Assembly: GCA_001724245.1 (NCBI GenBank)
Contig: MEDX01000010.1
Span: 1 to 64,000, forward strand
Length of the DNA: 64,000 nt
From: Fonticula-like sp. SCN 57-25
Taxonomy: Eukaryota
Direction: 5' to 3'
The notes beneath the pieces were generated by a model. It worked only from the letters and a program-made list of their open reading frames with translations. It was not told where the DNA came from and did not search any database. Positions 11,162 through 49,869 of this stretch are shown here, piece after piece (position 1 is the first letter of the stretch; every line of letters starts with the position of its first letter). The position numbers and the translations under genes were made by a program.

Positions 11162-12487
11162 TTAAACAGACGAACTGAGCGCGACGCGGTACTTTTCGAG
11201 CGTGTCCTCAAACAGACCCTGGAGCTTTTCATAGTACTCTTCCGCGCTCTGCTTCTTGACGACATCGAGCTCGTCCTCGTTCTCTTTGAGGAGACGCTGC
11301 TTGACAGCGAGCCTGTACTCGCGCACGCGCGCCTTATCGCCCGCCGAGATACCCTTGAGCGCCGCAATCTCGCCGACGCGCACCGCCTGCCGCTTGCTCA
11401 GCTTGAGCTCGCGGCAGACGCGCTCGACCGCCTCCTTGGGCGACTTTGCCACCGCGGCCGACAGAGACGCGTTCGACGCCAGCGCGCGGTAGTCGCACGC
11501 GTCGCGCAGCGCCTGGAAGACGTCCGCGGGGTCCTCGACGGTCACGTCAATGACGTCGGGCCGCGACCGAAGCAGCGACATTATCGAATCGTAAAACTTG
11601 GCTGCGAGAATGGGTCAGAAAAGCGCAGGAAACCAGCAAGAAAACGCACCGCCAAGCCGCTGGCGCTGATACGGCGGGAAAATAATAAACTGACTATGGG
11701 AAAGGTAAGCCACATGGTTGGGGAAAAGGGCGCGTACGAGATGCGGAAGCGGATCTTGTCGGGGTGGTGGTAGAACGCGTACGTCGTGCAGTAGCCGACG
11801 GTCGCGAGCGACTTTTCGCCGTTGGAGACCGTCCGGCGCACCCTTTTCGCCGCTGTTAGCGCATATTATTTATAAAAATGCAACGAAAAGACGCACAAAT
11901 AGAAAATTTCCCAGCGCGGGTCGACGTCGAGGAGCCGCGCGCCGTCAATGTAGAAAACCGAGAGGACCTGAGCGCGGTCGTGGAAGGGGCGCGCATCGGC
12001 CAGTGCGGCCTCGCCCTCAACCTTGTACACAAGGTATGTCTCGCCGCTCTCGCCTGACGGAGCCGCAAACTCGCCGACCTGCTCGCCCGGCGGCGTCCAG
12101 GATTCGGCGTCGCTGTCGACGGCGCGCAGGTACGAGTCGAGATCGCGCGTAGCGACGCCCTCGGGGTACCACTCCTTGAGCTTGCCAACAACGTCCGTCG
12201 CCGTCGAGTGCTGCTTCGAGTCGCTCTCAAACATGATAAAGGGGCGGAGCGAGCCGGCCGCAAAGAACAGATCAACGCGCGGGTTCACATGCCCGCGGAT
12301 CGTCTCCTCGGGCTCATCGTCAAACACCTGATGCAGATACTCGGCGGGATACGTCGGCGATCGCTCCCAATCGGTACCCTTTGACACTGGAAGCAGTACG
12401 TCAGAACCGCCACGTATGCACAAAGTAAGACGCACGAAAGCGCAGCTGCACAGCCTCGCCCGCAGGCACCTCAACAGGCCCGCCCAT
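11162..12487 (-). CDS. HAT1: Histone acetyltransferase type B catalytic subunit
   Basis: YLHQVF..EETIRG, FYIDGA, VGYCTTY, RFRISQFIIFPPYQRQRLG (GNAT motif A) and DVTVEDP...FQALRD. Spliced start MGGPVEVPAGEAVQLRF. Confidence 0.93.
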
Positions 12488-12720: not shown

Positions 12721-15022
12721 TCAGAAGCGCAGCCGCGCAATGTCGGCCGGCTGGAACTGGACGTGGAGCTGCAGGAACTGCTTGACCTCTGCGACGGTAA
12801 GCCGCCACGCGCCGCCGCCGCCGCTGCCGTTCACCGCGTGCGTCCCGTAAAACTCGTTCACTTCGCTGAGCGAGTCCAGGCTGAGCAGCGCACAGATCTG
12901 GAGCACGCGGGCGAGGCGGTCGCGCGCGCCGTACTGCGCAAAGTGGCCGACGAGCTGCCGCAGGCTACGGTCGAGAAGAAGCGAGCCCATCTGTTTGGCG
13001 GAAAGTGAGCAAAAAAAGTATGTGGCCAATGAACGCGTACGTGGTTGAAGCGGAGCTTGAGGATGGCGCGCTCGAGCTCCTTGGCAACGTAGTTGAGCGC
13101 AAGCCCGACCATGCGCGCATAATTTCCTTCTGTCAATCCATCCTAATTTCATTGGATTAGTTACCAAAATGTATGCGTTTGGCGTCCTGGCCTCATACCT
13201 GGAACTGACGCGCGGCCTTTGAATAGTCTGTGATAAACTTTGCGGCGAATGATTCGCGTGCGGCCGCCTCGTCGTACTCGTCGTCCGTGATGAGGAACTT
13301 TGCCTCCTTGAGCGACTCCTGGAGCGCCGCGCGGACGTCCGGCATAAACGCGTGCGCAAAGAGGTACTGGACTCCGTCGGCGAGCAGCTGCAGGACCGGC
13401 TCGGCGGCGTCCGAAAAGACGGCCAGGACCGACTCGATCTTTTGCCGCGCAACGCTGTCCTCGTCCATGGTTTCCACCACATGGCCCATGAGTTCGCTTT
13501 TGAGCTTTCCAACATACTCTGCGGCAACGTCGGCGTTGTTGAGGGTAATCATATTCCTGGCGCGGACCTCCTTGGTGTCCTCAAGCGCGTAGAGGGTGCT
13601 AAGCGCGCCGCGCAGCGCGCCGACAAAGTCGTCCTCGAACACGCGCGCGCTCACGTTGACCATGGCGCACAGCCCGTCGACGTCGGTGGTCGCCATGGCG
13701 CGCATCATGCACTTTTTGAAAATGTAAAAGGCGTCGTCGACGGCAGAGCTGGTGCGCGAGTCGGCGTCGCGCTCGTCGATCTGGAGCGCCTTTTCGACGC
13801 TGCGCCGCATAAAGAGCTCCTCGAGCGCAAGGTACTTTACGACGAGGTCCTGCAGCCGCTTGGCAAGCGGTGTCTCATTAGCCCAGCCAGCGGCGCCGAG
13901 CCGCATGGCACTGTGCTGGCGCGTGCCGGCGGCCACTTCGCGCTGCGCCGCCTTGTCCACGGCGATCTGGTCGAGCTGCTGCTGCATGCGGCCAGAAATA
14001 AAGTTGAGGAAAAGATGCGACCGCGCAATGATCTCGGCCAGGGAAACGAGAACAAGATCGAGCTCCTTCATGTCGGCGGGCGTCGGCGCGCGGCTGCTCA
14101 GCAGGCGGTCAACGCCAACGCGGTCCACAAAGGCGGTCGCCGTCCGGTCCATCTGCTTGTCCACGGTGCGCTGAAGGCGCTCAAGCAGCGTCAGCATGTG
14201 GCCGGGCGAGTAGTGCGTCTCAACAAGCGGCTCCTCCTCATCAATCACGTTTGCAACCTGCTCGTACAGCCGCGTCATAAACTCGGCGTACTGGGAGCCG
14301 CCGTTGGCCGTCCGCAGCTCGCCAAAGGACGCCTCAGCGCCTTGCTCCACGCGCGCGCCGAGGTAGTCCGCGTAGCGAAGCAGGCCCTCGGGCGCCATCC
14401 GCAAGAGCGGGAAGAGCTTGAAAAAGCGCACGACGCGATCCCCGTCGCCCTTGGAGGCCGCCTTTTGAAACTCGTCCACCAAGATCGTCCGTAGCTCCGT
14501 CTCAGCCTGCGTCATCACGTCCTCGCCCGCGGCGCCCGTCACGGGGCTCGCAAGCGCCATCCGCGCAAGCTTTGGGTCAAAGCTGCGGTAGCGGTGAATG
14601 TACACCGCCGCCGTCTCGTAGTTACCCGCCGAGATGGCGGGAAGCACGCCGGCAGCGCACGACTTTAGCTCGAGCACGTTCTCCACCTCGCCGATCGCAT
14701 CCTGCACGCGCGACTGCTCAACGTCCAATTGGCGCACCTTGGCGCTCACCGCCTCCGCCAGCTTGCTCGTCCCGACCACGGTCGACCGCAGCCGAGCGAC
14801 ATCGCCCAGGAGCAGCGCGAGGCGCGGCCGCAGGGCATCGAGCGTCTCGAGCTGAAGCTGCACGCCGTGGCGGCCGTGCAGATCCGAGTTAAGGTCGCGG
14901 TCAATCTCAATCTCGGCCTCCTCCACCTGTGCAAGCAGGCGCTGCACCTGCCCGAGGTCGGTGAGGCGGCGAAGATCGTCCACCGACAGCGCGTCCAGCC
15001 CTGACGCTGCCGCCGCCGCCAT
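12721..15022 (-). CDS. COG4: Conserved oligomeric Golgi complex subunit 4
   Basis: LAEAVSAKVRQLDVEQSRV, YETAAVYIHRY, RFFKLFPLL, TSSAVDDAFYIFKK, and C-terminal GSLLLDRSLR and WRLTVAEVKQFL. Two 3' introns. Confidence 0.93.
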
Positions 15023-15274
15023 CTCAGAAGGATGTACACCCTGGTTTGTGTCACCGGTTGCCACTAAGAGTCTACCCGTATCTAGGTAGGTTGTTTTCGT
15101 CCCCCCGCTGTCATTTTGGGGTTTTGTGAGCTGACAGGCGTGGCGACCAATCACCTCGTGACGTCGGGCAGCAGGTGCGTGGCGCCATCCCGAGGGCAGT
15201 GTTGTTGCGACCCCCCCCCTTCTTTTCATACCCCTTGTCGACCGGAGGCGAGCGAGCCGACCAGCCTAGCGACC

Positions 15275-23603: not shown

Positions 23604-25530
23604 ATGGCCATTCGTCCGGATGACGCGCTTTACCCGATCGCTGTGCTCGTTGACGAGCTCAAGCATGAGGAGGTCGCCCTCCGCCTTAACGCGATCCACC
23701 GCTTGACGACGATCGCGCTGGCGCTCGGCCCTGAGCGTACTCGCCAGGAGCTCGTTCCCTTCCTCACAGACGGTATGCGGCTGGCCGCACCGCAGAGCCG
23801 CGCTTACATATTTGTCTAGAATCCACCGATGACGAGGACGAGGTGCTGCATGCCCTCGCCGAGGAGCTCGGCAAGTTTGCCGAGTTCATTGGCGGCCCTG
23901 CGCACATCCCCGTTCTCCTCCCTGCTCTCCAGAGCCTCGCCTCGCAGGAGGAGACCGTTGTCCGCGACAAGGCCGTCGAGTCGCTCTGCCTCCTTTGCGC
24001 GCTCATGCGCGATGAGCAGGTGACGCAGCACTTTGTGCCTCTCATTGAGAAGCTTGCCACTGCACAGTTCTTCACCTCGCGCACGTCGTCGACTGGCCTC
24101 TTTGCCGTCGCGTACCCGCGCGTCAACGCTGCCGTGCAGGAGAAGCTCCGCACCCTCTATGGCGCCCTCTGCAAGGACGACACGCCCATGACTCGCCGCG
24201 CCGCCGCGACGCACCTTGCCGCGCTCGTCAAGGTCCTTAGCAAGGAGCATGTGCTCAAGGAGGCCACCCAGATGTTCTCTGTGCTTGCGTCGGACGACCA
24301 CGACTCTGTGCGCGTGCTGGCTGTGCCGGCCGGTGTTGCCATTGGCGCCCTCTCGACCGAGGCCGAGAACGCCCAGAGCCTGATGCCCACGCTCAAGCAG
24401 GTCATCTCGGACAAGTCGTGGCGCGTGCGCTACATGGTTGCCGACAACTTTGTCGACCTTGCCACCGCGCTCGGCCCGCAGCTCACCAAGGAGGAGCTCG
24501 TGCCCGCCTTCATTGGCCTTTTGCGCGACAACGAGGCCGAGGTGCGTACCGCCGCCGCCGCCAAGGTGCCCGGTTTCTGCAAGCAGATCCCTGAGGACCT
24601 CACGATCCGCCTCGTGCTCCCCTGCGTCCGCGAGCTCGTAACGGACGCGTCGCAGCACGTGCGCGCCTCGCTCGCGCAGCAGATCAGCGGGCTTGCGCCG
24701 ATCCTCGGCAAGGCCGTCACCACCGAGAGCCTGCTGCCGCTTTTCCTCCAGCTTTTGAAGGATGAGTTCTCCGAGGTCCGCCTCAATATTATCTCCAGGC
24801 TCGACTTGGTAAATGAGGTCATTGGCATCGACCTGCTCTCGCAGTCGCTCCTCCCGGCGATCGTCGAGCTCGCCGAGGACAAGCAGTGGCGTGTGCGCCT
24901 CGCCATCATCGAGTACATTCCGCTGCTCTCCCGCCAGCTCGGCGTCGAGTTCTTTGACGACAAGCTCAGCAACCTCTGCCTCTCGTGGCTCGGCGACTGC
25001 GTCTTCTCCATCCGCGAGGCCGCCACCACCAACCTCCGCAAGCTCACCGACGTCTTTGGCGTCGCCTGGGCGCAGGCCACGATTCTCCCCAAGGTCCTCT
25101 CGCTATGCACACACCCCAATTACCTCTACCGCATGACGACGCTTTACGCTATCAATGTACGCTGCCCTTGCGTTTGGGCTGCAAACTGGACGGTTAACTG
25201 ACCCTTTTTGCGATAGATCTTGGCGGATGCTGTTGGGACGCAAACCATCATTGACTCGATGCTCCCGGTTGTCGTGTCGCTGTCGTCGGACCCGACGCCC
25301 AACATCCGTTTCAATGTCGCCAAGACGCTCGAGCGCATCATCCCGCTCGTCAGCGCGACCAACCCGGCGGTCGTGAGCGGCGAGATCAAGACCACGCTCG
25401 ACAAGCTTGTCAAGGACGGCGATATGGATGTGCAGTTCTTTGCCAAGCAAGCATTGGCGAGTACGAACATTGCTTTTTCTTCGCTGGCGTGCTTAACTAA
25501 CCACCGCGCGCTGCAGCTATTGCCGCTTAA
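23604..25530 (+). CDS. PPP2R1A: Protein phosphatase 2A scaffold subunit A (HEAT repeats)
   Basis: [42 protein letters not shown] and PNIRFNVAK. Three coding introns. A probable 5' UTR intron lies at 23402-23591. Confidence 0.97.
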
Positions 25531-29917: not shown

Positions 29918-30026
29918 GGCCGTTCAAATTGCGCGGCTAACGGCGCGCTTTGACAGGTCGATGCAAACTGGAACTGAATTGCAGTCATCACGTGACTTGG
30001 TCTCGTGTGGCCAGGTGCGGCGCGCC

Positions 30027-31592
30027 ATGTGGAAGCCGACATACGCGCAGACGTGCAGCGCCATCTACTTTGGGTGCTATGCGCTCGTCGGTGCTGCGCT
30101 CTCCTCGCTCGGTCCCGCGCTGATCAACCTTGCCGATCAGACGGGAACCGACATTGGCGGCGTATCGTGCGTGTTTTATCTCGTGTCACGTTCGCTGACA
30201 TATCCACCTTGGTCCCTGCAGGTTTATCTTCCCCGTGCGGTCGCTCGCGTACCTTATTGGCTCTGCTATTGGCGGCCCTCTCTTTGACCGCCTCCCCGGC
30301 CACTATCTGTTCTCCTTTGCCATGTCGCTGGCGTGCATTGGCACAACGCTGCTGCCCTTTTGCAAGACGGTCGTTCTGCTCGCCCTGACCGCGTCTGTCC
30401 AGGGCCTGTCGATCGGCTTCCTCGACACGGGCTCGAACGTGCTGCTTGTTTGGGTTCACGGCGACGAAAAGGTCGCGCCGTACCTCCAGTTCATCCATTT
30501 TGCATTTGGCGTCGGCGCCTTTATCGCGCCGCTGCTCGTCGAGCTGAGCGTGAACGCAATCGCCGCACCTTCGCTCGCGTTCTGGATCATCGGCGCGCTC
30601 TTTGCGCCCATCGCCGCTGTGCTGCTCTTTGTAAAGTCGCCGCGGCAGGACTCTGCTGTCAAGGCGGACGGCGAACAGGCGGCGCCGCCGCCGGCGCGGT
30701 CTGGCGGCCTCGGCCGGTATGAAATGGCGCTCGTCGTGATCGCCGCCTGCATCATGTTCGTCTATGTCGGCACCGAGATCGGCGAGGGCAGCTACATTTT
30801 TACGTACTCTGTGCTGTACGCGGGCTTCACCGAGGCGCAGGGGCACTACCTCACGTCGGCCTTTTGGGGCAGCCTGGCGGTACGACCTTTTATGATGATG
30901 GCGCTGCATATCTAACACGTGCGCAGCTCGGCCGCCTCATTGCCGTGCCAGTGTCAATCTACGTCAAGCCAGCGCGCATTCTCCTGTTCAACTTTACCGG
31001 CTCGCTCGTGAGCGTCTTTCTCATCGCCGTCTTCCCCGCGTCGCACGGCATCGTACGTTCCCGCGCTTTTTCCTTTGGCCACTTTTCTGACAAACCCGCC
31101 GCGCAGCTGTGGGCGTGTACCGTGACGTACGGCCTGTGCATGTCGTGCATCTTCCCTTCGGTCCTCAACATGCTCCAGGGCGACGTCCCGCTCACGGGCA
31201 AGCTCACGTCGGCGCTCGTCATCTCCGGCGCGCTCGGCGAGATGGTCGTCCCGCTCGTGCTCGCGTTTGTCTTTGAGCAGGACCCGTCGACATTTGTGTT
31301 TTTGATATACATCTTGGTCATGGGCGCCGCCGTGTCGCTCGTGCTCATGGCCGTCTTTATGTTTGTGTCGAGGAGGAGGAGGCTGACCAAGGCGTACAGC
31401 TCGCTCGAGGAGGACGGGCAGCTGCAGGTGGACAGCGAGGAAGATGAAATTGGGATGGACGACGACGGCAACAACTTTAAGATGGCGCAGCTGACGGCGC
31501 CGGGAAGCTCGGCGCACCTGCTCGGCGACGAGCCAATCGAGCTCGACGAGTTCCATACGGCGGACGACGACGACGACGTGCAGCTCTTGTAA
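30027..31592 (+). CDS. MFSD4-like major facilitator superfamily transporter
   Basis: SSLGPALINL, GFLDTGSN, HFAFGVGAFIAP, YVGTE, AFWG....GRLIA and MSCIFP. Acidic tail ending DDDDDVQLL. Three introns. Confidence 0.9.
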
Positions 31593-31846
31593 AGCTTTTG
31601 TCTATGGATTCGGTATGCCAGATTCGCCATACCTATCATGTATGCCGAGTAGCAGGTGTCCTTTGAGGATGCGATGCCCTTTTTAGTATTTTTTCTGTAA
31701 ATGATTTTGTGGTCTTTTGATTTTGGTCTGAATGTATATAGCCGCGAAGTTTTTATACATAAAAAGAGTAACTATGGCGACGCTATCCGAAAACTAAAAA
31801 TTTCCCAAAACAATATAAGACAAATAACAACAGCAAACTAGAGTGT

Positions 31847-33713
31847 TTACTGCGACAGCGCCTTGATGCGCAGCTCGTAATCTAAACAGCCGATTAGTAT
31901 CAATGAAAATGTCCACAATTTCGCCTTTGCGCACCTTGCTCCAGGGCGAGGTAAGCCTGCTTCTCCGACTGGCCAATAATTTGGAGCATCTCAACCTCGG
32001 CCTTGAGCGACTCAATTTCCTGCTTGGCCTCCTTGATCATCTGGGCGGCAGACTCCTCGGCGCGGATGCGGCGAGTGTGCTCGGCGGTGCACTGCTGCGA
32101 GTACATAAGGTTCTCCTCCTTGAGCGTGGCGACCTTCTCCTCCAGCGCGGCAATCTGCGCCGTCTTTTCGGCGATTTCAAACTGCAGGGCGGCAAAGTCA
32201 ACCTCGATGGCCTCGCTGAGCGCGCGCTCAATCGAGGCGCGCTTCGTCGACTCGATGGCCAGCTTCTCCTCGGCAGCCTGGTGCGACTGCTTCGTGGACG
32301 CCATCGACTGCTCGAGCTGCGACGTCTGGCGCGCCATGCGCAGCGTGTCCGCCTGGTACAGCTCGACGCTGTCCGTCGCCTTGTTCAGGGCGAGCGTGCG
32401 CTCCTTGAGCGTCATGTCGGCGCGGAGCTGCGCGTCCAGGAGCGTGGCGCACTGCTCGGCCACCTTGCCCTTGAGCACGTCAACAGTCGCGTCAGAGGTC
32501 TGCAGCTGCTCAAACATCTGGCGAAGGCTCGACGCCATCGCAGCGCATTCGTCGGACGAGACCTTGGCGCTCTGCAGGGCAAAGTCGCATTCCTTGTTGG
32601 CAATCGTGCTGCGCTCCTTTTCGGCCGCAAGATTCGCCTCAAGCTGCGCAATCTAAGACAAAAGATGGTCAATAACCCATCAAAACAAGAAAAAAAAATT
32701 GCATACCTGAGCGTTGAGCGCCTCCTCGTTGGCCTTGGCCTCGGCCTTGGCCGCCAAAAGAGCCTCCTCAAGCTTGCTGCGGTCGTTCCTCTCCTGAGCC
32801 GCCGCCTGCGAGCTGCAGCGACAATGTAAGCGTTGAGTACACTTCACTTAATTTCGTACCTGACAGAGTGCTCGCGCGACTTGGCCTCGAGCTTCTTGGA
32901 CTGGTCCAAGAGGGCCTTCTTTGTCTCGGCCATGTCGTGATTGGCAACCGACGACTGCGACTCGTGCTGGGCGGCCGACTGGATGCGCTCGGCGATGAGC
33001 TTGTTGGTCTTTGAGATCTGCTCGTCGAGCTGGCGGCGGACGGACGCCTCCATGCGGCGCGACGACTCGAGGAGGACCTCGGTCTTCCTGAGCTCAGTCG
33101 CAAGGCGCTTGGACTCGAGCTGCTCCTTCTTGAGGTCAGCCTCGGTCGCGTGCAAAAGCTGGTTCGCCTTCTGGTTGTCAAGCTCGGCCTTTTGGCGCGT
33201 GGCCGTCTCCTTGGCAACGCGCTTGTCGGCGTCAGAAACAGCGCGGTTAGCGCTGGCAAGCTGCACGGTGAGTGCGGCAATTTCCTCCTTCGCGGCAGAA
33301 AGCTCCTTGGAGACAAAGGGGGCAGCGACAGACTTGGCGGCGGGGGCGGCGGCCTCAGCGGGCTTGGCGGCCGGCTTGGCGGCGGACAGCTGCGCAGCGG
33401 CGGCAGCCCTCGAGGCAGTCGTCATAGAGGACATTGTGCGCAGAGAGCCATGCGTGTGGAAGGTGCGCAGGCTCTGGGTGCGGACCGGGCTGCCCGGCTT
33501 GTTGTCATCGACATCGCCGATGATGGAGCGGGAGCGGGTGGGCACCGAGCGCTTCACCGGCGAGGCCGCCTTGCTGGAGGAAGCAGCGGGCTTCTCCGCC
33601 ACCTCGACAACAGCATTCTCTTCAGCGATGGCCTGGGGGGCCGCCTCGGGCGACGTGGCAAGCTGCTGATCCTTCTTGAGCGGCGAGGCCGAGCCGCTCA
33701 GGATGCTCTTCAT
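31847..33713 (-). CDS. Long coiled-coil protein with S/P-rich N-terminus, function unknown
   Basis: Exons with strong coding bias and heptad-like E/K/A/L content, joined by three GT-AG introns and ending DYELRIKALSQ*. Confidence 0.8.
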
Positions 33714-34017
33714 GTTCTCTGACCGCGCGTTCGTCCTCTCTGTACGAACATTAGATCTTACAAAGCGCTTTTGGATAAACGTACGGTTCACGGCAGTGCT
33801 GCTCTGCAGCACCTTTGGCTGGGTCGCCGACATCTCCCTCTTACTCTTTCGAACGGTCAGTCGTCGAGCAGGGGAATGGAGTTTCACAATTTTTGTTTCG
33901 AATCGAGTAACGTCTCGATCGCGATTGGATTTTGCACGATCGCGATTTACCCGAGCTGCCTATTCGCCTCGTGGTCCGCAAAGCCGCAACCCACGGCACA
34001 TCACCTTTCTCGCCAGG

Positions 34018-37000
34018 ATGAAGCGAGCGGCGCGACCGTCCGGCAAGCCGGAGAAGAGCGCTCGTCCTGCTCACCGCGAAAAGAAGCCGTCTACCGAGGT
34101 GGTGGAAGAAAAGCCTGTGCTGAAGCGCAAGGTTGAGGAGGAGGATTTCCCGCGCGGTGGCGACATTGGCCTGACGCCTTTGGAGTACCGCGAGGTTGTC
34201 CGCCAGGCCCAGGAGGACCTTCTCAAGGATGATGTACGAGTGCTTTTGTGCATAATTTACCCATCTTTCTGACGTTTGCGCGTAGACTACGTTGATTGGC
34301 GACGACACGGAGGCGCAGGAGGCTGCTGCCGCCGCCAAGCCCGCGGCCACCGAGAAGCGCAAGAGCAAGAAGCAAAAGGTGGTTGCCACCAAGGAGCCGC
34401 GCGAGGAGAAGGCGCTCACCGCCACCGTTCTCAAGTTCAAGGGCCTTCACGTCGGCCTCACGCTCCTTGGCGCCGTCAAGGAAGTTCGCGAGCTTGATCT
34501 TGCCATCTCGCTTCCCCATGGTCTTACCGGCCACTGCTCCATCACTGAAATTTCGCCCGAGTTTTCTGCGTTTATTGAGGCTGCCGCCGAAGATGACTCG
34601 GCTGCCGAGGACGCCGACAGCGACGACGAGGCTGCCGCGCGTGGGTCTGATGTGCCCGCTCTCGATGCGCACTTTACCGTCGGCCAGCTTGTAAAGTGCG
34701 TCATCATCGGCCTTGACCGCTCGCCCTCGGGGCACAAGCGCGTCGAGGTGAGCCTGATGCCGTCCAAGGTGAACGGCGGCATTGAGGCTTCCGATCTCGC
34801 CGTTGGCACTGTGCTGCCCGCCAGCGTGCAGAGCATTGAGGACCACGGCTACGTGCTCGGTCTCGGCATCGGCGAAGCCAAGGCGTTCCTGCGCACCAAG
34901 GACGCCAACACGCATGCGCCGGGAATCGGCGTTGGATCGCTCGTCAACTGCGCGATCACAAAGGTGGACCCTGCTCACCGCGTTTTCCACGTTTCGGCTG
35001 ACCCGACCGTTGCTCTCCACGCCGCCGTGCGTCTTTTGCTTCGTTTTGCCGTTTTTTTGCTGACCGAATGTTTCATAGACGCCGTCCGCTGCTGTTACTC
35101 ATATTCGCGACATTCGCCCGGGCCAGCTTATGAACGCCCGTGTCCGTCAGCTGCTCACCAACGGCCTCGAGGTCGAGTTCCTCGAGAACTTCCGCGGCAC
35201 GATCGACATGCACCACATTGGCTCCGACATTGGCAAGGCCGAGTCTGACCTCGGCTCGCTCTTCAAGGTCAACCAAAAGGTCCGCGCGAGGGTCCTGTTT
35301 GTGGACCACATGAACCGCCGCGTCGGTCTGTCCCTCGCGCCCCACATGGTCGGATGGACTGCCCCCGCTTTTTCGATCGACGACGTACGCATTTTTTGGT
35401 GTGAATTCTTTGTTGACCCTTTTTATTCTTTAGGAGACGGTTGAGATTGGCCATATTTTCGAGGAGGCCACGATTGTGCGCGTCGTCCAGGGCCTGTCGC
35501 TGACCCTCGAGGCGCCCGGATCCTCCGCGCCCCTCTTCTGCCACGTACGCCGCCGTAGCTCTACCCTTGCCCGCCACTCACTCTTGCTCGCAGATCTCCC
35601 AGGTGTCAGACGCGACGACCGAAAAGTTTGATAAGGAACACCGCATTGGAAGGTGCGTGCAATGCTATTGATAACCGTTTAAGCTGACACTTTTTGCAGC
35701 ACGCATCGCTGCCGTGTCATTGCGCTCGACTACGCCGACGGCCTCGTGCGCGTGTCCATGCAGGAGAGCGTGCTCAAGCGCCCGTTCATCACCTACGCCG
35801 ACGTGCGCGCCGGCCAAGCTGTTCAGGTACGCCGAGTTGGCATGTTTTGTTATAATTTTCGTGCCGCAGTGATGCTTTTGATTAGTCTTTCTGAACCAAA
35901 TCTGAAGACACATTTATTCAATCCTGAGCTTTTTGTCTGTTTTTTGTTGTGTCTACTATCTCGCATATCTTCTCTTTACTAACGATTGGCCTCGTTAGGT
36001 GCGACGTGTTTCATTTTTCCCCTCCTTTGTTCCGCAATGATGGTTTGATTAGTCTTTCCGAACACCCTTGAAGACGCATTATTTCTTTGCTGAGCTTTTC
36101 TTTTAAACATTCTCGCTTTGGTTTCCCGTTTTGCCTTTAATCCTCACGCATCTTTGTAGGGCGAGGTTATCTCTGCTGGCTCCTTTGGTGTCTCTGTTCA
36201 GCTTGCCGAGGGTATCCGTGGCTTCTGCCCGCTGAACCAGGCTGCTGACGTCAAGCTGTCTCACCCCGAGAAGCGCTTCAAGGTCGGCTCGACCTTCAAG
36301 TTCCTTGTGCTGTCTGTTGACGCCAAGGCGAAGCGCATCACGCTGACGCACCGCAAGTCCCTCCTCGACTCGACGCACCCGCGCATCACCGAGTACACTG
36401 AGGCGACCCCCGGCATGCTCTCGAGCGGCGTCATCACGAACGTTGGCTCCTTTGGCGTTGTCGTGCGCTTCTTCAACAACGTGCACGGCCTCGTACCCGT
36501 CAAGGAGCTCGGCCCGATCGACGTTGCGGACCCGACCAAGCTTTTCCACATTGACCACCCGGTCGTCTGCCGCGTCATTTCGTCGGACCCCGAGACGCGC
36601 AAGATGCGCCTCAGCTTCCGCTTGTCGCTCATCTCGAGGCGGCCTGATGAGGAGGGCAAGGCCGCGCCGGCCGCCAAGCCGGCGTCGCGCAAGGCGGGCG
36701 AGTCGCCCGTGGCGTACACGCCCGAGGACATTTTCGCGGGCAAGGTCGTTGAGGGCACGATCAGCCAGCTGTTTGCGACGCACATGATTGTCGCGCTGCC
36801 CGGCAACATCAAGGGCTACATGCACGCCAGCGAGATCCACGACCGCCTCGAGGACGGCGCCGTCAGCCCGCTGCCCGGCGCGTTCAAGCCCGGCCAGCAG
36901 ATCAGGGCCAAGGTCATTGGCGTCGGCTACGACAAGGACGACGCCAAGTTCCTCGCCATCACTCACCGCCACTCGCGCCGCGGCGTCGTCGCGATCCTGT

Positions 37001-39390
37001 CGGTGCGCCCGTCCGAGCTCGCCGTGCCCGAGGGCACCGCCGGCCACGCGCCCGTGTCGGTCGAGACCGCCGCTCAGGGCGACAATGTCGTCGGCATTGT
37101 CCTCAAGGTGTCGGGCCAGCACCTGCTCGCGTCGCTCGGCCACGACTGCGTTGCGCGCATCCCCGTGCTCAACCTGTCGAGCGACCCGTCCAAGCTCGAG
37201 AGCGTCGCCGAGTCGTTCCCGTCGGGCCGCGTCATGAAGTGCGTCGTGACGCGCAAGGACATTGAGCGCTACTTTTTGACGGCGTACCCGCTGAGCAACC
37301 CGTCGTGCGTGAGCGCGCTCACCAAGACGCAGGAGGCGGTCGCCGGCGAGGACGAGGACGACGACTCCAACCTCGAGGGTAGCATCGTCGTCGGCCGCGT
37401 CGAGACCATCAACGACTTGTACATTACGGTGACGATTGCGCGCGGTCTCGTCGGCCGCGCCGCCATCGCCGAGATCTCTGACCCGCTCGTCGAGTCGCCG
37501 ACGAGCACCGTGCGCGTCGGCCAGTATGTCCGCTGCAAGGTCGTCAGGCACGTCCCGGTCAAGAACATTATCGACGTGTCGCTGCGCCCGTCGGTGATCG
37601 ACTCGCTCGCCAGCGCCGAGGGCGCCATCAAGACCAAGGGCTCGACGCACGCCGCGCACCCCGTGTCGTTTGCCAGCATCACCGAGGGCCAGATCGTCGG
37701 CGGCTACGTAAAGTCGGTCGGCGACAGCGGCTGCTTTGTGCAGCTCGCGCACGACGTTGTCGCCCGCGTCAAGATTGCCGAGCTCTCTGACCTGTTCATC
37801 AAGGACTTTGCCGCCGTCTTTACGCCCGGCAAGCTCGTCAAGGGCGTTGTTCTTTCGGTGTCGCCCAAGACGCGCCAGATTGAAATGTCGCTCAAGGCGA
37901 GCCGCTGGAACCCGGCCGACAAGCCGCTCACGTGGGACGACCTGCACGTCGGCCTCAAGCTGAACGGCACTGTCCGCCGCGTCGAGGCCTTTGGCGTCTT
38001 CCTCAACATTGCCAACAGCCGCCTCTCGGGCCTCTGCCACAAGTCCGAGGTATCGGACGACCCCTCCGACGCCGCCGACCTCGCGTCGCGCTACAACGTC
38101 AACGACAAGGTCCGCTTTGTCGTGCTCGCCGTCGACGCCGAGAAGAAGCGCATGTCGCTCGGCATGAAGGCGTCCTACTTTGACGACGAGGACGAGGACC
38201 TCGGCGAGGACGCTGTCGGTAGAAGCGACGACGAAGATGACGAGGAGGAGGAGGAGGAAGACGAGGAGGAGGAAGAGGACGCAATGGATGTTGACAATGA
38301 GGACGACGACGACGAGATGGATGTTGACGAGCCCGCGACTGCGACCCGCAAGCGCGCGTCGGCCGCCCTCAATGTCGACGCTGCTTTTGACTGGTCTGGC
38401 GGCGCGGCTGCCGGCGGCGACGACAGCGACGCTGCGATGAGCGAGAGCGACGGCGACGACGATGATGAGGATGACGGCAAGGACGCCACCGAGGCTCGCC
38501 GCAGCAAGCGCGCCAAGCGCCGCGAAAAGGCCGAGAATGAGGCGAATGTGGCGATGCAGGAGCGTCTTTTGGCGGACAAGTCGTCTGCGCCCCGCTCTGC
38601 GGACGACTATGACCGCCTGCTGCTCTCTTCGCCCGACTCTTCGTTCCTGTGGATCAAGTACATGGCGTTCCAGCTGAGCATGGCGCAGATCGACAAGGCG
38701 CGTGAGGTCGCCGAGCGCGCCCTCAAGACCATCTCGTTCCGCGAGGAGCAGGAGAAGCTCAACGTGTGGGTTGCGCTGCTCAACCTCGAGAACGCGTTCG
38801 GCACCGAAGCCACGCTCGACAAGGTGTTCCAGCGCGCGCTCCAGTACAACGACCAGAAGAAGGTCTACGTGCACCTCACCGCCATCTACGAGCGCACCAA
38901 CAAGGACGAGGCCGCCGAGGAGCTCTACAAGGTCATGACGAAAAAGTTCAAGGAGAGCAGCAAGGTGTGGGTCGCGTACGGCCTGCAGCAGCTCAGGCTA
39001 CACGGCGCCGACGCGTGCCGCAAGGTGCTCCAGCGCAGCCTCCAGTCGCTCCCCAAGCGGAAACATGTCAAGGTGATTTGCAAGTTTGCGCAGATGGAGT
39101 TCAAGCACGGCGAGCCTGAGCGCGGCCGCACCATCTTTGAGGGCATCCTTGCCAACTACCCGAAGCGGACGGACCTGTGGTCGGTGTACATCGACATGGA
39201 GGTCCGCACCGGCCAGCCCGACGTCATCCGCCGCCTGTTCAACCGCGCGCTCGCCGCCAAGTGGTCGTCCAAGAAGATGAAGTTCTTCTTCAAAAAGTAC
39301 CTCGATTATGAGAAGAAGTTTGGCACCGAGGAGACGGTCGACGCCGTCAAGCAAAAGGCGCGCGAGTATGTCGAGTCGCTCGACGCCTAG
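34018..39390 (+). CDS. RRP5: rRNA biogenesis protein RRP5 (S1 repeats + HAT/TPR tail)
   Basis: N-terminal DFPRGG..LTPLEY, multiple S1 repeats, PDSSFLWIKYMAF, REEQEKLNVWVALLNLEN and YPKRTDLWSVYIDME. Confidence 0.97.
35865..35931 (+). ncRNA. Intronic box C/D snoRNA, copy 1
   Basis: C box GTGATGC (35869-35875), guide TTTGATTAGTCTTT, D' CTGA (35891-35894), C'-like TGAAGA (35903-35908) and D CTGA (35924-35927). The guide is antisense to the conserved LSU rRNA segment AAAGACUAAUCGAA. Confidence 0.8.
35977..36004 (+). other. Internal branch point with juxtaposed 3' and 5' splice sites (zero-length exon / recursive splice site)
   Basis: TACTAAC at 35977-35983, TTAG ending 35998, and GTGCGA starting 35999, which matches the GTRCG donor consensus of this window. 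Confidence 0.7.
36033..36097 (+). ncRNA. Intronic box C/D snoRNA, copy 2
   Basis: C box ATGATGG (36037-36043), the same guide TTTGATTAGTCTTT, D' CCGA (36058-36061), C'-like TGAAGA (36069-36074) and D CTGA (36090-36093). Boxes and guide are conserved against copy 1 while the spacers diverge. Confidence 0.8.
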
Positions 39391-39720
39391 CAAGCTTTTT
39401 GTCTGTAGATGGCGCGCCCGTGTTGTAGTCTGTGTACAGAACGCATAATGTGTTTTCTTTTTCCTCAATGGATTCTCAAACGTATAATTTTCTTTTGTCC
39501 TCAATGGAGTCTCAAACTGTTATTGATATACTGCAAAACCCGTTTCCGGGAATCAACCTACATTTGGTATATAATGGCACCTGGCGCTGCGCCCGCCTGG
39601 CAATAAGGGCTGGCAGTGCGACAAGGCGGCACGCGAAATGTCTATCGATGTGGAGGTAAAACTGCGTCAAAAAGCAAACAACAAAACACTGGTGTAACGG
39701 GTGTCTAGAAGGAAAACCGG

Positions 39721-41086
39721 TCAAACAAACGACTGGCCTGACCGCGCGTTCACCAGCGGGCGGCTTCCAGGGATGACATTCATTGTATTCGAGCGCATAA
39801 ACGGCGACGCGTCTGCAGCCTGCGACACCTTTGTTACCACTGGAAAGCATGACAAATTGGTGCGTACGGTTGCAGCGGGCACGTGGACAGGCCGCGCGCG
39901 GAGGTCGCGCAGCGTGGCGGCCAGCTTTTCGGGGTCGGACCGCTTGACGTGGTCAAGAAGGTCCGCGAGGTGCTTGCGGTAGTGCTCGGCGGCCTTGCTC
40001 GTGTACTTTTCGCGAATGTGCGCGGGGTTGAAGGCAGTGGGGTTGATCTTTTGCTCAAGAAAAAACTGGCGAGCACTGATTGAAAAAATAAAAAGAGTCG
40101 TTGTGTTAGCAAATATACATGATCGATCCCTGTCGTACCGCTTGTTTCCTCCGAGCTGCATGAGCATCATGTTGTCCGGCTTCCACTTGTCGAGGCCGAC
40201 CGACTGCACAAAGGTGAGGTGCACGCCGAGGGAGCGGTGTGTCCCCGAGCACTGGATGCAGATAAACACGCCGTACGTGACGGACGCCCAGTTGGGATCG
40301 GCCGCGCCGCAGTCAAAGCACGCCTACAGCACGTTAGAAAAGATTCAGGGGAAAAAGATGGATCCGCACGAGGTTCTCGCGCTCGAGTGCAATAATGTTG
40401 TTGAGCAGCGCCGTCTGCTGTGGGACAGGCAGAAGCGCAATGGCCGCGAGCGACTGTGGGTAGTCCACCGCGTGCGCTTGGTGCATGGTTGGCGAAACCG
40501 CGGACATGGGCATGGACGAGAGGGAGGCCGTCGACGGCGACGGGCTCAGCCGCGGCGTGGCAGACGGCGACGTCGACGGGACGACGTCTTTGGGGAGCGA
40601 CAGCGTGAGCGCCCCGGCGCCCGCCGCGCGCTCGCGGTCCTTCTTGGTGATAAAGTGCTTCATGATCGGGTTGCCCGAGCGGGCGGCCACGCGCGCAGCG
40701 GCGGCGGCGGCCTTCTCAGCCTGGGCGGCCGCGGCCGCCTGGAGCGAATGCGACGCCGCGGGGCCAGCAATGAACTCTTCGCCAGCGGAGACGATCAGCT
40801 TGCCCTCGGGCACCATCGCGAGGAACAACATGTTGTCAAAGACAATGCCGTCCATCGTGTACAACCGCACGGCCTCCTCATCAAAGGGGGGATGCGTGAA
40901 CGCGGCCACAAAGCAGTTGTCAATGAGGTCGGGGAGCTTCCAGTCGCCAAAAACGGTCACCGCGCGGGGGGGCGCGCCCTGATCGTCATTGCGGTACACC
41001 TTTATGGTGATCCCGGATGGTCTCGGCGGCATCGCCTCGCCTCGCGTGCCTGCACGGGTGGCCGAGGAAACGTCCCCTTGAAACAT
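39721..41086 (-). CDS. ArfGAP-domain protein with N-terminal KHA/doublecortin-like (ubiquitin-fold) domain
   Basis: [38 protein letters not shown] has the zinc finger and Arg finger. The N-terminus reads ITIKVYRN...RLYTMDG...LIVSAGEEF. The start is 41086 or 41032. Confidence 0.85.
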
Positions 41087-41555
41087 CGAGGGCTGCAAAC
41101 TGGACCGCGGTTTGCGTGGATGCAAACTGGGTCAGTTTGCAGGATCAGATAAAAACATTCCGGTTGTTCCCATTGGAAGATCAAGGTCCTTCAGATCAAT
41201 TTCAGCCAATCAAGATCGCAAATTGACAAACATTGGACGGGACGCTTCAAAAAGTCGACACCAAAGCAGCAGTGAGGCGGCCTACGGCGACCGACGGCAA
41301 CTTTGGGTACTTGAAACAGCACTCGTTCGGCTGCTGCTCCGTGAGCCAAGTCATATAAGGAGGCTCTACATCGCTCTTTCCTAATAGAGTTGTTTGGGAG
41401 TCGCGCTTTCTGTTCAACGAGTTGCGTCGATTCCTTAACCGGCCTCGATCACTCCTCTTTGAAATCACGCGTGGCAGCGGATTTGCCCCTTGCATCTGCA
41501 GGAATTTGCCGGTGAACCCCTTTTGCTACTGTGTAGCTTAAAAGTCGTGCTTACC

Positions 41556-44441
41556 ATGGAAACGGCCGGTATCGTCGCGGACGCAGAGGAGCGGCAGCGC
41601 CGTCAGGCAGAGGAAGACGCCCGCCTGCAAGCGGAGCTCGAAGAGCGTCGCGCAGAACGAGCTGCCAGGCGCGCTCAACGTGCTGCAGCGGCTGCTGGTG
41701 CGCACCTGCCCGCCATGTGTTGCCTATACTCACGCATGACTTAGAAGCGGAATCGCAAAAGTCGAGCCCAGCCATGCCGCCCACCACCACTGCCGCATCT
41801 GGCGAGTCTGAGGTGAGGCGCAAGAGCAAGGAAGTGAGCGCTGCATCTGGCGAATCGGAGGTAAGGCGGAAGAGCAAGGATGAGAGCGAGCCCAAGAAGC
41901 GCATTCCCAAGTCGACGTCGGGCGACTTGTCCGACATTAGCGGCGAAGTAAAGGCGGAGAAGCCGCGCCACCGCAAGTCGCACGACAAGTCGGCGGAGGA
42001 GGGCGGCCCCGCATTGGACGCCGAGGCCGCCGCTGAAGCGGCGCTGGCCAAGGCGGAGCGCAAGAAGAAGCGCGCCGAGGCGCGGGAACGGGACGGCCTG
42101 CTGGCAGCGTCGTCCGACAAGCCCCAGTCTAGCAGCGATAAGGTTGACCAGGCGGCGGCATCGCTGTCGTCGGTCAGTCTCAACGACAGCGCCCCCGCTG
42201 CGGAGCCATCAAGCAAGAAGGCCGAGCTGTTTGCCGCCGTCGGCGAGCTCGACGCGCGCATCTCGACCGCGCTCAAGGAGGAGCCCAAGCGTGCGGCTCT
42301 TCCCGCTACCAAGGACATTGTCCCGCCCAAGGCCGAGGTTAAGGTCGAGGTTACCAAGGTTGAGGTGGCCAAGGCACCCGAGCCTGTTGCAGAGCCTGCC
42401 AAGCCCGTCGAGGAGCCGGTAAAGGAGACGCCTCGGCGTACCAGCCGTGTAGAGGAGGCCAAGACAGATACAAAGGCCGTACAAGAGACAAAGACAGAGA
42501 CAAAGCCGGTCGAACCGGTGCAAGAGACAAAGCCGGCCGAAGCTGCAGTTGAAGCTGCGCCCGCTGCTGCCGAAGCCATGTCGCAGGACGACCTTCTCCG
42601 CCTCGAGATTGAGCGCGAGCGCGAGGAACGCCGTCGTGAGCGCGAGCGCCGCCGCTCGGGGGCGTCGGGATCGACGACTTCCACCCCCGAGCCCAACAGT
42701 TTTATCGGGTTTTCCAACGCGCAGCGCCGCACGTCGTCCCCCGCGGCCGCCCCCAGCCGCTCGTTCGCCTCGCCCGCTGCCGTTTCTCTTGCGCCGACGT
42801 CGGCCGCAAAGTCCGTTTCGGCGCCCGAGCCGACCCTGACGACTGCGGCCAAGTCTGCGTACGAGTCGCGCCTGTCGTCGTCGCCTGCACCCGAGAGGCG
42901 CGCATCTTCTGCTGAGACTCGCGCGTCTTCATCACCTGCACCTGAGAGGCGTGTATCTGCTGCCGAGTCGCGTGTGACTTCATCGCCTGAGCCAGAGAGG
43001 CGCGCATCTGCTGCTGAATCGCGCGTGACATCATCTCCTGCTCCGGAGAGGCGCGTTTCTGCTGCCGCTGCCGCCGAGCCGGTTGTGACGCCAGCACCTG
43101 CGCCCGTTGAGCCGGTGGTGACGCCAGCACCTGCATCTGCCGAGCCCGTCGTGGCGCCATCGCCGGCGCCTGTGGCCGCGTCTTCCGAGCCCGCGCCGAC
43201 GACGCCCCTCACGCTGGGCAAGGCCTCGCCGCGCCTTGGCTCGATGTCTGCTGCCATGAAGCGCAGCATCCCGCGCCTCGATGTGTCGCCGCTGTCGTCT
43301 GGCGGCTCTGCCGAGGAGCCCTCGACACCGACGACTCCCGGCAGCGAGGAGCGCCGCCGCCACCGCCGCACGCGCTCGACCGCCGCTGCGGACCTTCCTC
43401 AGATCGCGCGCAGTCCGTCGATCGGTAATGCCAAGGACAGCTGCTTCCAGTGCCGCAAGCGCGTGTACCCGACGGAGCGACTTGAGGTCGAGGGCACGCT
43501 GTTCCACAAGCTCGGCTGCTTCAAGTGCCACAAGTGCGGCAGCACGCTCCGCGCGGGCCAGTACGGTATCCACTCGGGCACGTTCTACTGCCTCTTGCAT
43601 CACCGCGCCGCACTCCGCGCCGATCGCGCCAACGACGAACAGCAGACCGCGGGCCTCGAGAGCGGCAGTGGCAGGGCGGCGAGCCCGACGCGCTCGCTGC
43701 GCTCTGACGTGACGGGCACTTCGACGCCACCCGCGCAGCGCCGCCGCGAGTCTGCCCTGGAGGAGACCGAGAGCCGGCCGCGGTCGTCGAGCGCGCTGTA
43801 CGGCGGCTCTTCGCGCGTGTCCGAGACGCCTTCGCCGCCGTCAAAGCTGGCCGCCGAGCCGTCGAACCCTCGCCTGGCGTCGGTCGTGTCGCAGTCGATG
43901 CTGCGGTCGCGGACGCCCGAGCCGAGCCGCTCGGTACACTCACCGCTGCCGTTTGGCGGGTCGCGGTCAAAGACGCCCGAGCCCAAGTCGACGCCCGCCA
44001 TCCGCTTCACGAGCGTCGCCGTGACCGTCAGCACAAAGCTGAGCGGCAAGCAGGCGCTGCTCGAGTGGGCAAAGCGCTGCGGCGAGGGGTACCCCAACGT
44101 CGAGGTGACCAATTTCAACGTGTCGTTCCGCGATGGACTTGCGTTCTGCGCAATCATCCACCGCTACAGGCCCAATATGCTCGACTTTAAGGCGCTCTCA
44201 CCTACCAACCGCCACGAGAACCTGCGTCTCGCCTTTGCCGCCGCGGACCAGCTCGTACGCGATGAACTTCCTATTCTTAATATTTACTAACTGTGCAATG
44301 CTATAGGGAATTACGCAACTGCTTGATGTTGAGGACGTGGCCGATTTTGAAAAGCCCGACGACTTTGCCATCATGACGTACCTGTCGGAGAAATACCACT
44401 TTTTTAAGAATGATATTATGGGGAGCGGCTACCGCTCTTGA
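41556..44441 (+). CDS. Cytoskeletal protein: low-complexity region, LIM domain and C-terminal MICAL/smoothelin-type CH domain
   Basis: LIM CFQCRKRVYPTE...FHKLGCFKCHKC...YCLLH. CH ALLEWAK...VTNFNVSFRDGLAFCAIIHRYRP...LLDVEDV...PDDFAIMTYL. Two introns. Confidence 0.9.
42863..43066 (+). repeat. Coding tandem repeat, 4 x 51 nt (17 aa, ESRVTSSPAPERRASAA consensus)
   Basis: Units start at 42863, 42914, 42965 and 43016. Confidence 0.9.
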
Positions 44442-47293: not shown

Positions 47294-49869
47294 TCAAGGC
47301 TTGAGGATGTCGAGCATGCTGTGCACCTCTGCGACCGAGTCTAGGTAGTAGTGCGCCTTGGTCTGCTTCTTGCCCACCGTGACGGTGTAGCTGTACGGGA
47401 TGTGACCCACAAGCGAAAACACAGGCTCGTCGGTCTTTCCGTCGCCAACGCACAGCAAAAAGTCGACCTGCGGGCCCTCAATGCCGCTCTCGTCGTCCCA
47501 CTCGGCGCCATTGATATCTGCAGAACAGTACATTGTGAGCAAGAAAAGCACAAAGATATATATGTTTTGTGCGTACCGAGAAGAATGGCGCGCGCGACGG
47601 TCGACTTTTCCACTGACGCCGGACGGACCTCGAGCGTCTTTGAGCCGAGCACGATAGAGACCGCCATGTGGCTCAGGATCTTGTCGAGGTTCACCTGGAG
47701 CTCGGCCGCCTGCCAGCTGCCAAATTCGGGGTCGGCGTTGCGGTAGTGCCACGTCAGGTTAATGTCCTTTTCCTCAATAAACGACCCGGGCGTGCGCTCA
47801 GTGTAGTGCTGGAAGAGTGGCCGAATCGTGTCGCGCCACGACATGTCAATGTCGTCCACCATGCGGATCCAGCCATTCTCAACCGAGTGCTACAAGAGTC
47901 GACGTGAGCACAAAAAGGGAAGAAAACAGGCCCAATGCGGCGTACAGGACTGATGGCGTTGGCGCGCGGCGGCGGCGTAAAGTTGGGCGGGTGGCGGTAA
48001 AAGCAGCCGTGCTCTGCGCTGAGACCGACTCCCGCGTCCTACAAGGTAAATAGAGGTCAGCAGCTGCACAGCCAAACATAAGGAAATCGTACCCCAAACC
48101 ACTTTTCTAGGTTGGCGCGGTCGCGTCCCGAGATAATGTAGACGAGCGTGTTTGGCAGCGCCGCGAGCGCGCGGAGGCTTGCGAGCACGCCCGGCGACGG
48201 CTGCGCAAACTCGGGCAGCTTATGCGTGCGGGTGAGCGTGCCGTCATAGTCGAGCACGATGACGCGCTTCTTGGTCGACTTTTGGAACGACTGGACGACG
48301 TCCTGGATGGCGAGCTTTGGCAGCACATTCCTTGCCTCGTTTTCCTCGCTGACGCGGAGCAGCTCGCGCACAAACGACGTCCCCCAGAACGACGCCGTGT
48401 GCTTGTTGATGTAGCGGTAGAGCTTTTCGTGGTTGCTCTGCCGCTCGCTCGGCGGCAACGTGAGCGCGTGGTAGATTGTGTCCGCGAGCTCCTCCGTGTT
48501 CCACGGGTTGACGATGAGCGCGCCGCTGAGCGACTGCGCCGCGCCGGCAAACTCGGAGAGGATGAGCACGCCGTGCTTCTCCTGCTGGCAGGCGATGAAC
48601 TCGTACGACACGAGGTTCATGCCGTCGCGCGTGGACGTTACGAGCGCAACGTCGGCGGCGCAGTAGAGCGCGCACAGCTCCTGAAAGTTGACCGACTGGT
48701 TCAAAAAGTGGATCGGCATCGAGTCGGCCGAGCCAAAGATGCCGTTGATGCGGCCGACGAGCTCGTTCAGGTTGGCGCGCAAGTTCTGGTACTCTTCGAC
48801 GTCGGTGCGCGAGGGGACCGCCACCTGGATGAGCACGACCTTTTCCTTGAACTGCGGGTACTTTGTGAGGAAGAGCTCGAGGGCGTACAGCTTTTGCGGC
48901 ACGCCCTTGATGTAGTCCAGGCGGTCCACGCCGAGCAGGATGAACTTGCCGCGGTGCTTGTTGTGCAGCTCCTCAATGCGCGCGATGACCGACGGCTCCG
49001 CCAGCCCCTCGCAGAACTTTTCGGGCTCGATGCCGATGGGGAACGTGCCGACCTGCACAAAGCGACCCTCGAATTCGACGCCGTTGGGCATCGTCGAGAG
49101 GCCCAGGATGCGCGTACAGGACGACAAAAAGTGGCGCGCATAGTCGTACGTGTGGAAGCCAATGAGGTCGCTCTGCAGCAGCCCGCTGAGCACCTGCTTG
49201 CGCACCGGCAGGATGCGGTAGATCTCGGACGACGGGAACGGCGTGTGCAGGAAAAAGCCAATCTTCATCGGCGTGTTGATCCCGACGGCCACGCGCAGCA
49301 TCTCGGGCATGAGCATAAGGTGGTAGTCATGGATCCACACAATGTCGCCCGCGCGCACAAGCGTCGCGACGGCGTCGGCGAACGCCTGGTTCGCGCACTG
49401 GTACGCGATCCAGTCACGCTCCTGAAAGTTAATTTCGCCGGGGAGGTAGTGGAAGAGCGGCCACAGGATGCTGTTGCTGAATCCGTTGTAGTGCAGGTCG
49501 GCAATCTCGTCCTTGAGAAAGACGGGAAGGCAAGAGTGCTCAGAGAGAAGCTTGTCGCGCACGTACGCCTGCTCGGCCTCGGGGACCTCAAGGCCCGGCC
49601 AGCCGATCCACGTAAACCGGAGATCCTTCTTGAGGCCGTTCAGCGCAGAGACGAGGCCGCCAGAGCTCATCTTGAACGTCCACTCGTCGCCGGTCCTGCA
49701 AAAGAGCGGCGCGCACGGTGAGCGACCGCGCCAGTTAATCTGAGGGAGGCGAGCGAGCGTACTTGTTGACCGTCACCGGTAGGCGGTTGGACACGACGAG
49801 CATGTGCGTCTTGGTGCCGCCCTCCATGGTAGGTGCTTGGCTAAGTAGCGGGTTCTTTAGCAACGGCAT
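47294..49869 (-). CDS. Fused trehalose-6-phosphate synthase/phosphatase
   Basis: VVSNRLP, SSGGLVSAL, WIHDYHL, GVDRLDYIKG and DGMNLVSYE (GT20). DYDGTL, ISGR, AEHG and GDGKTDE (HAD phosphatase). The start is 49869 or 49827. Confidence 0.95.

Follow-up and report, generated by a model that had tools for sequence, protein, structure and literature searches.

How does a gene remove an intervening stretch several times longer than the introns around it, in one piece or in parts, and what does that stretch carry? The question is raised by the gene for the ribosomal RNA (rRNA) biogenesis protein RRP5 in the first 64,000 nucleotides (nt) of contig MEDX01000010.1 (assembly GCA_001724245.1, deposited as Fonticula-like sp. 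SCN 57-25), a stretch of DNA that we call the window. The RRP5 coding sequence is interrupted here by 333 nt, and we found that these consist of two abutting units. Each has its own donor, branch site and acceptor, and each carries one element resembling a small nucleolar RNA (snoRNA) of the box C/D type. The two units are paralogous, and the differences between them are unevenly distributed, sparing the splice signals and the snoRNA elements. Probably an intron carrying a snoRNA was duplicated precisely in tandem, and the two copies would now be removed as abutting introns, with one lariat for each snoRNA. An arrangement of this kind had been proposed in a first-pass annotation of the same DNA.

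Results

The RRP5 reading frame across the intervening stretch

The RRP5/PDCD11 homologue is encoded on the forward strand at about 33928-39390, and its exons were mapped from 33928 to 39390 by tblastn with five homologues as queries. The product of the last exon matches proteins named rRNA biogenesis protein rrp5 (best E value 6.6e-210). These matches bear the S1 family (PF00575) and Pfam families of the HAT type, as expected of RRP5/PDCD11, in which multiple S1 domains precede C-terminal HAT/TPR repeats. The two exons that frame the intervening stretch, called exon 1 and exon 2 in the following, are:

35700-35826, forward strand: RRP5 exon ending in GCTGTTCAG; its last codon is CAG (Q), and the following intron is in phase 0
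36160-39390, forward strand: last, large RRP5 exon of 1076 codons plus stop, with S1 repeats and the C-terminal HAT region; it opens with GGCGAGGTT, the first codons being GGC GAG GTT (GEV)

When the exons are joined by coordinates and translated, the product reads ...ADVRAGQAVQ/GEVISAGSFGVSVQ... (a slash marks a splice joint here and below), which is an ordinary start of an S1 domain. The translation of the joined exons aligns through the joint with all seven homologues tested, and in none of them is there a gap at this position. Since the frame is intact and the homologues are ungapped at the joint, the whole stretch of 333 nt (35827-36159) has to be removed, as had been concluded earlier from the joint AVQ/GEVISAG. 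Partial removal is not tolerated. With the downstream half retained, translation meets a stop 13 codons past the joint; with the upstream half or both halves retained, it meets a stop 51 codons past the joint, which is the TAA within the motif TACTAAC.

The introns of this gene are confined to its 5' third, and the last exon of 3.2 kilobases (kb) is free of introns. Near the end of exon 1 the sequence CAAGCTG (35815-35821) is complementary to CAGCTTG (36199-36205), located 40 nt inside exon 2, and CTGTTCAG occurs as a direct repeat at 35819-35826 and 36194-36201. The complementarity of the exon ends and the direct repeat may draw the ends of the intron together, or they may be due to chance.

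Two complete intron units meeting at a predicted exon of zero length

Using flanking open frames, a drop in guanine-plus-cytosine (GC) content and the signals GTNNGN, YTNAY and YAG as heuristic evidence, we predicted 62 introns in the window. Their median length is 55 nt (quartiles 47-67, maximum 115), in agreement with the value of about 50 nt that the first-pass annotation had given for most introns here. The strong branch motifs most frequent among them are CTGAC and CTAAC, and the median distance from the branch A to the end of the intron is 14 nt. The 333-nt stretch contains the following elements:

35827-35998, forward strand: half 1, 172 nt long and complete as an intron unit, GC content 0.38
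35999-36159, forward strand: half 2, 161 nt long and likewise complete as an intron unit, GC content 0.42
35827-35832, forward strand: outer donor GTACGC; no donor pentamer is more frequent than its GTACG (25 of the 62 predicted introns)
35977-35983, forward strand: internal branch site TACTAAC; branch A at 35982, 55 nt past box D and 16 nt ahead of the acceptor
35979-35998, forward strand: hairpin of 7 base pairs, CTAACGA with TCGTTAG, and a 6-nt loop; a perfect inverted repeat in which the internal branch site pairs with the internal acceptor
35996-35998, forward strand: internal acceptor TAG (TTAG context), abutting the internal donor with an exon of zero length
35999-36004, forward strand: internal donor GTGCGA; its GTGCG ranks second in frequency among the donor pentamers (16 of 62)
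36143-36147, forward strand: outer branch site CTCAC; branch A at 36146, 53 nt past box D and 13 nt ahead of the acceptor
36157-36159, forward strand: outer acceptor TAG; the exon resumes with GGC at 36160

Both halves fit the local intron grammar. At the centre a YAG is followed directly by a consensus donor (TTAG/GTGCGA at 35995-36004), and the spacing from branch A to acceptor, 16 nt at the internal site and 13 nt at the outer one, lies around the local median of 14 nt. The coordinates that had been given for the donors, branch sites and acceptors are all correct, and the signals needed for two complete introns, one of 172 nt and one of 161 nt, separated by an exon of zero length, are present where they had been described. 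Moreover, one and the same triplet, AGG, straddles the border of exon 1 and the intron, the internal joint and the border of the intron and exon 2.

The composite pattern CTRAY-N(5-25)-YAG/GTRCG, to which the internal joint conforms, turned up in 4 of 30000 interiors of the intron simulated with a first-order Markov model. On both strands of the window it is found only twice, the other copy being located at 10781 in GC-rich, coding-like DNA. The shorter string YAGGTRCG on its own was observed 13 times in the window, where 6.9 occurrences are expected.

The 7-base-pair hairpin is strikingly placed on the splice signals, but it lacks significance when compared with shuffled sequences (z = -1.2; 25 of 200 shuffles fold as well). 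An upstream UCGCAU can pair with the internal donor GUGCGA, again not significantly against shuffles, and the fold of the whole intron is no better than that of shuffles (z = +0.12).

A box C/D snoRNA-like unit in each half

Each half contains one box C/D-like unit on the sense strand:

35864-35932, forward strand: unit 1, box C/D snoRNA-like, with a SNORD36-like profile match; ends approximate
Boxes of unit 1, forward strand: C GTGATGC 35869-35875; D' CTGA 35891-35894; C' TGAAGA 35903-35908; D CTGA 35924-35927
Guides of unit 1, forward strand: D' guide 35876-35890; D guide 35909-35923; a loop of 8 nt between D' and C'
36032-36098, forward strand: unit 2, box C/D snoRNA-like, with a SNORD36-like profile match; ends approximate
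Boxes of unit 2, forward strand: C ATGATGG 36037-36043; degenerate D' CCGA 36058-36061; C' TGAAGA 36069-36074; D CTGA 36090-36093
Guides of unit 2, forward strand: D' guide 36043-36057 as compared, its first base being the last of box C; D guide 36075-36089

Box C begins 42 nt past the donor in half 1 and 38 nt past it in half 2, which bears out the earlier observation of one unit per half at a similar offset. The span from box C to box D measures 59 nt in unit 1 and 57 nt in unit 2. Both units deviate from the box C consensus at its final base, which is C in unit 1 and G in unit 2 instead of A. A D' and a C' box are found in both, the D' of unit 2 being the degenerate one. Matches to the Rfam family SNORD36 are below threshold, with 22 bits (E value 0.39) for unit 1 and 17.5 bits (E value 4.1) for unit 2 at a gathering score of 30. 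Together with one long intergenic candidate, units 1 and 2 are the only AT-rich pairs of box C and box D of snoRNA size in the window.

An AT-rich intergenic stretch of 116 nt at 11063-11178 on the forward strand, located between convergent genes, starts with GCAATGATGC and ends with CTGAGC, and these end motifs are as in the RRP5 units. This stretch could represent a box C/D snoRNA in its own right; Rfam lends it no support.

The D' guide of 14-15 nt that the two units share is presumably complementary to a conserved segment of the large-subunit rRNA. A search with Rfam showed that ribosomal DNA is absent from the 64-kb window, and a 12-nt string of the guide retrieved nothing relevant from the full-text literature. 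Scanning a metagenome collection for paired D' guides 140-170 nt apart yielded three loci, namely a coding-like repeat, a minisatellite and a hairpin resembling a terminator, all of which we rejected as matches due to chance. A scan of a collection of genome contigs for box C together with the guide yielded eight bacterial loci, none of them with the architecture of a snoRNA.

Paralogy of the two halves

The snoRNA cores of the two halves are identical at 54 of 69 columns, a score that none of 1000 shuffles attained. The 5' flank, taken without the GTRCG donor, shows an identity of 18/32 (score attained by 87 of 2000 shuffles), and the last 25 nt, which include the branch site and the acceptor, show an identity of 17/28 (26 of 2000 shuffles). 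In the middle of the 3' flank homology between the halves is not detectable, as 1962 of 2000 shuffles attain the score. Since homology is found both at the donor-side flank and at the acceptor end, the copied unit spanned the donor to the acceptor. The halves are best described as paralogues, consistent with the tandem duplication of a whole snoRNA-bearing intron that the first-pass annotation had envisaged. The spacer has become random after copying, and the splice signals of both copies have been kept, including the internal ones that a single-intron model does not need.

Within the units, the D' guides are identical at 14 of 15 positions and the D guides at 9 of 15. Differences between the copies affect 4 of the 46 columns that make up the boxes, the D' guide and the stems, compared with 11 of the 23 columns of the loop and the D guide (Fisher p = 4e-4). 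Two constrained snoRNAs with one common target would show such a pattern. It has been suggested that the arrangement doubles the dose of one snoRNA; this holds for the D' guides, which are nearly the same, and fails for the D guides, so that the effect of the duplication went beyond dose.

The end of box D is separated from the branch A of its own half by 55 nt in half 1 and by 53 nt in half 2. In vertebrates, the assembly of box C/D small nucleolar ribonucleoproteins is coupled to splicing, and the optimum position reported for it lies some 50 nt upstream from the branch point (PMC8162545). The spacing in both halves of the RRP5 stretch is close to this optimum. If the whole stretch were removed in one step, snoRNA 1 would be 219 nt from the branch site used.

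Discussion

Proposed origin and removal of the stretch

We propose that a phase-0, snoRNA-bearing intron of RRP5 was duplicated exactly in tandem. With AGG at both of its borders, slippage or unequal exchange between them would copy exactly one intron. The outcome would be two complete introns which meet at TTAG/GTGCGA with an exon of zero length between them, each carrying a short box C/D paralogue with a common D' guide and a diverged D guide.

The 333 nt would then probably be removed in two steps. Half 1 would most likely go first, CAG being joined to GTGCGA so that the donor is rebuilt, and half 2 would be removed thereafter; the opposite order would yield an identical messenger RNA (mRNA). 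We infer this order because introns in this genome measure about 55 nt, and a perfect branch site with a YAG is already available to the outer donor at 172 nt; at such a median length a proximal perfect branch site with its YAG should be used. Once the internal acceptor is used, this essential gene needs a working internal donor as well, since retention of half 2 would bring in the stop 13 codons on. Each snoRNA would be freed in its own lariat and, after debranching, exonucleases would trim both of its ends. Both snoRNAs may mature and function.

Several observations weigh against this explanation. The 12-nt context of the internal acceptor ranks at the 2nd percentile of a crude matrix (outer acceptor, 71st), and the internal donor ranks at the 29th percentile of a matrix of intronic positions (outer donor, 85th); an earlier matrix that included exon positions had placed the internal donor at the 6th percentile. 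These rankings come from crude matrices, with the 62 heuristic intron predictions as the training set. The hairpin between branch site and acceptor could hide the internal signals. Neither unit reaches any Rfam gathering score in a search of the whole window, and a search by E value of positions 30000-42000 was also empty. Only short pairings make up the terminal stems of both units. The fold of unit 1 is no better than that of shuffles (z = +0.57); for unit 2 the value is z = -1.8, and an equally good fold was obtained from 12 of 200 shuffles. The homology outside the cores amounts to p values of only about 0.04 for the 5' flank and about 0.013 for the last 25 nt, in short, T-rich sequence, and the rule of a 50-nt position is derived from vertebrates.

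A stronger form of the proposal joins several claims: that the RRP5 locus provides the first exon of zero length within the open reading frame of any fungal gene that encodes a protein, that it arose by a base-exact tandem duplication between the border AGGs, that it was kept since exonucleolytic release tolerates one snoRNA per lariat, and that the hairpin may set the order of the steps. We put this combination forward tentatively, its chance of being correct in every part lying a little short of even.

Alternative explanations

The alternative that survives best, which we nevertheless consider unlikely, is a single 333-nt intron that is removed in one step from the donor at 35827, through the branch A at 36146, to the acceptor at 36159. 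The internal signals would then be unused leftovers of the duplication, and an endonuclease would split the snoRNAs later, or else just one of the two would mature. The weak context of the internal acceptor, at the 2nd percentile, speaks for this possibility, and so does the hairpin, which could mask the internal branch site together with the internal acceptor. Plants have introns with multiple snoRNAs whose processing is independent of splicing, and we count this in favour of removal in one step. In addition, RNase III has been reported to act in the maturation of co-hosted snoRNA pairs in Schizosaccharomyces pombe (PMC12508059). However, the spacer of the 3' flank has diverged to randomness, whereas the internal signals are still intact and abut exactly. 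Removal in one step would also require that a perfect TACTAAC near the outer donor is skipped where introns are about 55 nt long, and it would leave snoRNA 1 at the distance of 219 nt from the branch site used. The hairpin, for its part, does not differ significantly from shuffles (z = -1.2, an equal fold in 25 of 200) and would be short as a substrate of RNase III.

It is more doubtful still that both pathways operate, with the hairpin or the speed of transcription setting the share of one-step and two-step removal and thereby tuning the output of snoRNA 1 relative to RRP5 mRNA. The 7-base-pair hairpin would suit such a switch, as it joins precisely the internal branch site and the internal acceptor, and alternative splicing orders have been described for snoRNA clusters of Candida (PMC5033589); against this stands the finding that the hairpin folds no better than shuffles.

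Finally, we give very little credit to the idea that one or both of the box C/D-like units are decaying copies or look-alikes in a long intron without meaningful RNA cargo, because, even though the Rfam gathering level is missed (best SNORD36 scores of 22 and 17.5 bits against 30), unit 2 has CCGA as its D' box, the final base of box C is C or G and not A, and the terminal stems are very short, the differences between the copies spare the boxes and the D' guide (4/46 against 11/23, p = 4e-4), this guide is 14/15 identical despite randomised flanks, and the units are the only snoRNA-sized AT-rich pairs of box C and box D in the window, bar the one long intergenic candidate.

Other features of the window and lineage

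Apart from RRP5, the window holds the following genes, identified through Pfam:

13196-15265, reverse strand: COG4
23735-25198, forward strand: PP2A A-subunit-like HEAT protein
41537-44287, forward strand: protein with LIM and CH domains
48060-49772, reverse strand: trehalose-6-phosphate synthase/phosphatase

A further tandem duplication of about 3.2 kb comprises positions 2250-5140 and 5480-8315, with 14 collinear repeat blocks of 76-94% identity, spaced 3174-3237 nt apart. Two adjacent paralogous intron-containing genes are thereby indicated, with matching predicted introns in both copies. The window contains one N, at position 21741.

Among named lineages, the trehalose-phosphate synthase is closest to those of early-diverging fungi, with 68% identity to Quaeritorhiza and 66-67% to Mortierellomycetes and chytrids; the top identities of 72-74% are to short contigs. 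On this basis the DNA probably belongs to an early-diverging fungus, a placement that is meant only broadly.

Comparison with known systems

The first-pass annotation knew of no description of such an arrangement in a genome with tiny introns. On this point it has to be revised, as juxtaposed snoRNA introns of fungi are already in print. Abutting snoRNA-bearing introns without an exon between them, spliced stepwise or recursively, have been reported from Candida, Debaryomyces, Yarrowia, Pezizomycotina and S. pombe, and the hosts given in these reports are all non-coding (PMC3596301, PMC5033589, 10.1101/226894). Juxtaposed snoRNA introns in fungi go back to Mitrovich et al. 2010, as cited in PMC5033589 and PMC3596301. 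Expressed sequence tags and reverse transcription PCR (RT-PCR) were found to fit a stepwise 5'-to-3' splicing of side-by-side snoRNA introns (Luo et al. 2013, PMC3596301), and splicing across an exon of size zero was described in the Candida clade and in Debaryomyces hansenii (Donovan et al. 2016, PMC5033589). In the titles, abstracts and selected passages of the literature searched, we found no abutting snoRNA introns within coding sequence.

As these papers describe them, the juxtaposed introns, termed complex or intron-intron-intron, resemble the RRP5 stretch in having at least two short introns with no exon between them and one box C/D snoRNA in each. Stepwise or recursive removal provides every snoRNA with an intron of its own, and the same is predicted for RRP5 from its sequence. 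They differ in being part of non-coding polycistronic clusters, whereas the host in our case is a protein-coding reading frame from which removal has to be base-exact. They have been explained by the loss of small internal exons, whereas the paralogy of the RRP5 units points to duplication of an intron. Finally, they are from Ascomycota, and the RRP5 case would be from an early-diverging fungus.

The nearest single counterpart is SPNCRNA.445 (snoRNA61) of S. pombe, where spliceosome profiling revealed an exon of zero length in an intron of 336 nt (bioRxiv 10.1101/226894). Here, too, an acceptor directly adjoins a donor in a snoRNA intron roughly 330 nt long, the fungus being one whose introns are short, and the site is conserved among Schizosaccharomyces species according to the authors. 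Unlike RRP5, the host is non-coding, and the account names one snoRNA. The site of SPNCRNA.445 was shown by reads with 5'-phosphate and 3'-hydroxyl ends and by RT-PCR, in contrast to that of RRP5, which is predicted.

Two further systems share single traits with the RRP5 stretch. The recursive sites of Drosophila and vertebrates, known as ratchet points, have the form YAG/GTRNG, and the first step rebuilds a donor on the upstream exon (reviewed in PMC5126111). They subdivide introns of tens of kb that have no RNA cargo, whereas the RRP5 pieces are shorter than 200 nt; the likely reason for the subdivision of the RRP5 intron is one snoRNA per lariat. The stwintrons of filamentous fungi are likewise complex intervening sequences removed by two consecutive U2-type reactions (PMC8469720). 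In that account an inner intron breaks a splice signal of the outer one, in contrast to the RRP5 units, which merely abut, so that either could be removed first.

The RRP5 locus falls short of a new category, its principle having been in print since 2010-2018. If confirmed, it would extend the solution of one snoRNA per intron without an exon between beyond the non-coding hosts of Ascomycota, and it would show that this solution also works in an early-diverging fungus, within a coding gene that is essential and demands exactness of both steps. It would also be a clear example of an intron multiplied in place through tandem duplication and, if true, a natural experiment in which snoRNA cargo is able to preserve duplicated splice sites. 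The 333-nt stretch offers a compact natural substrate for studies of recursive splicing and of splicing-coupled snoRNP (small nucleolar ribonucleoprotein) assembly. Compared with the known systems, what is new in the RRP5 case is the protein-coding host, the origin by duplication of an intron and the early-diverging lineage.

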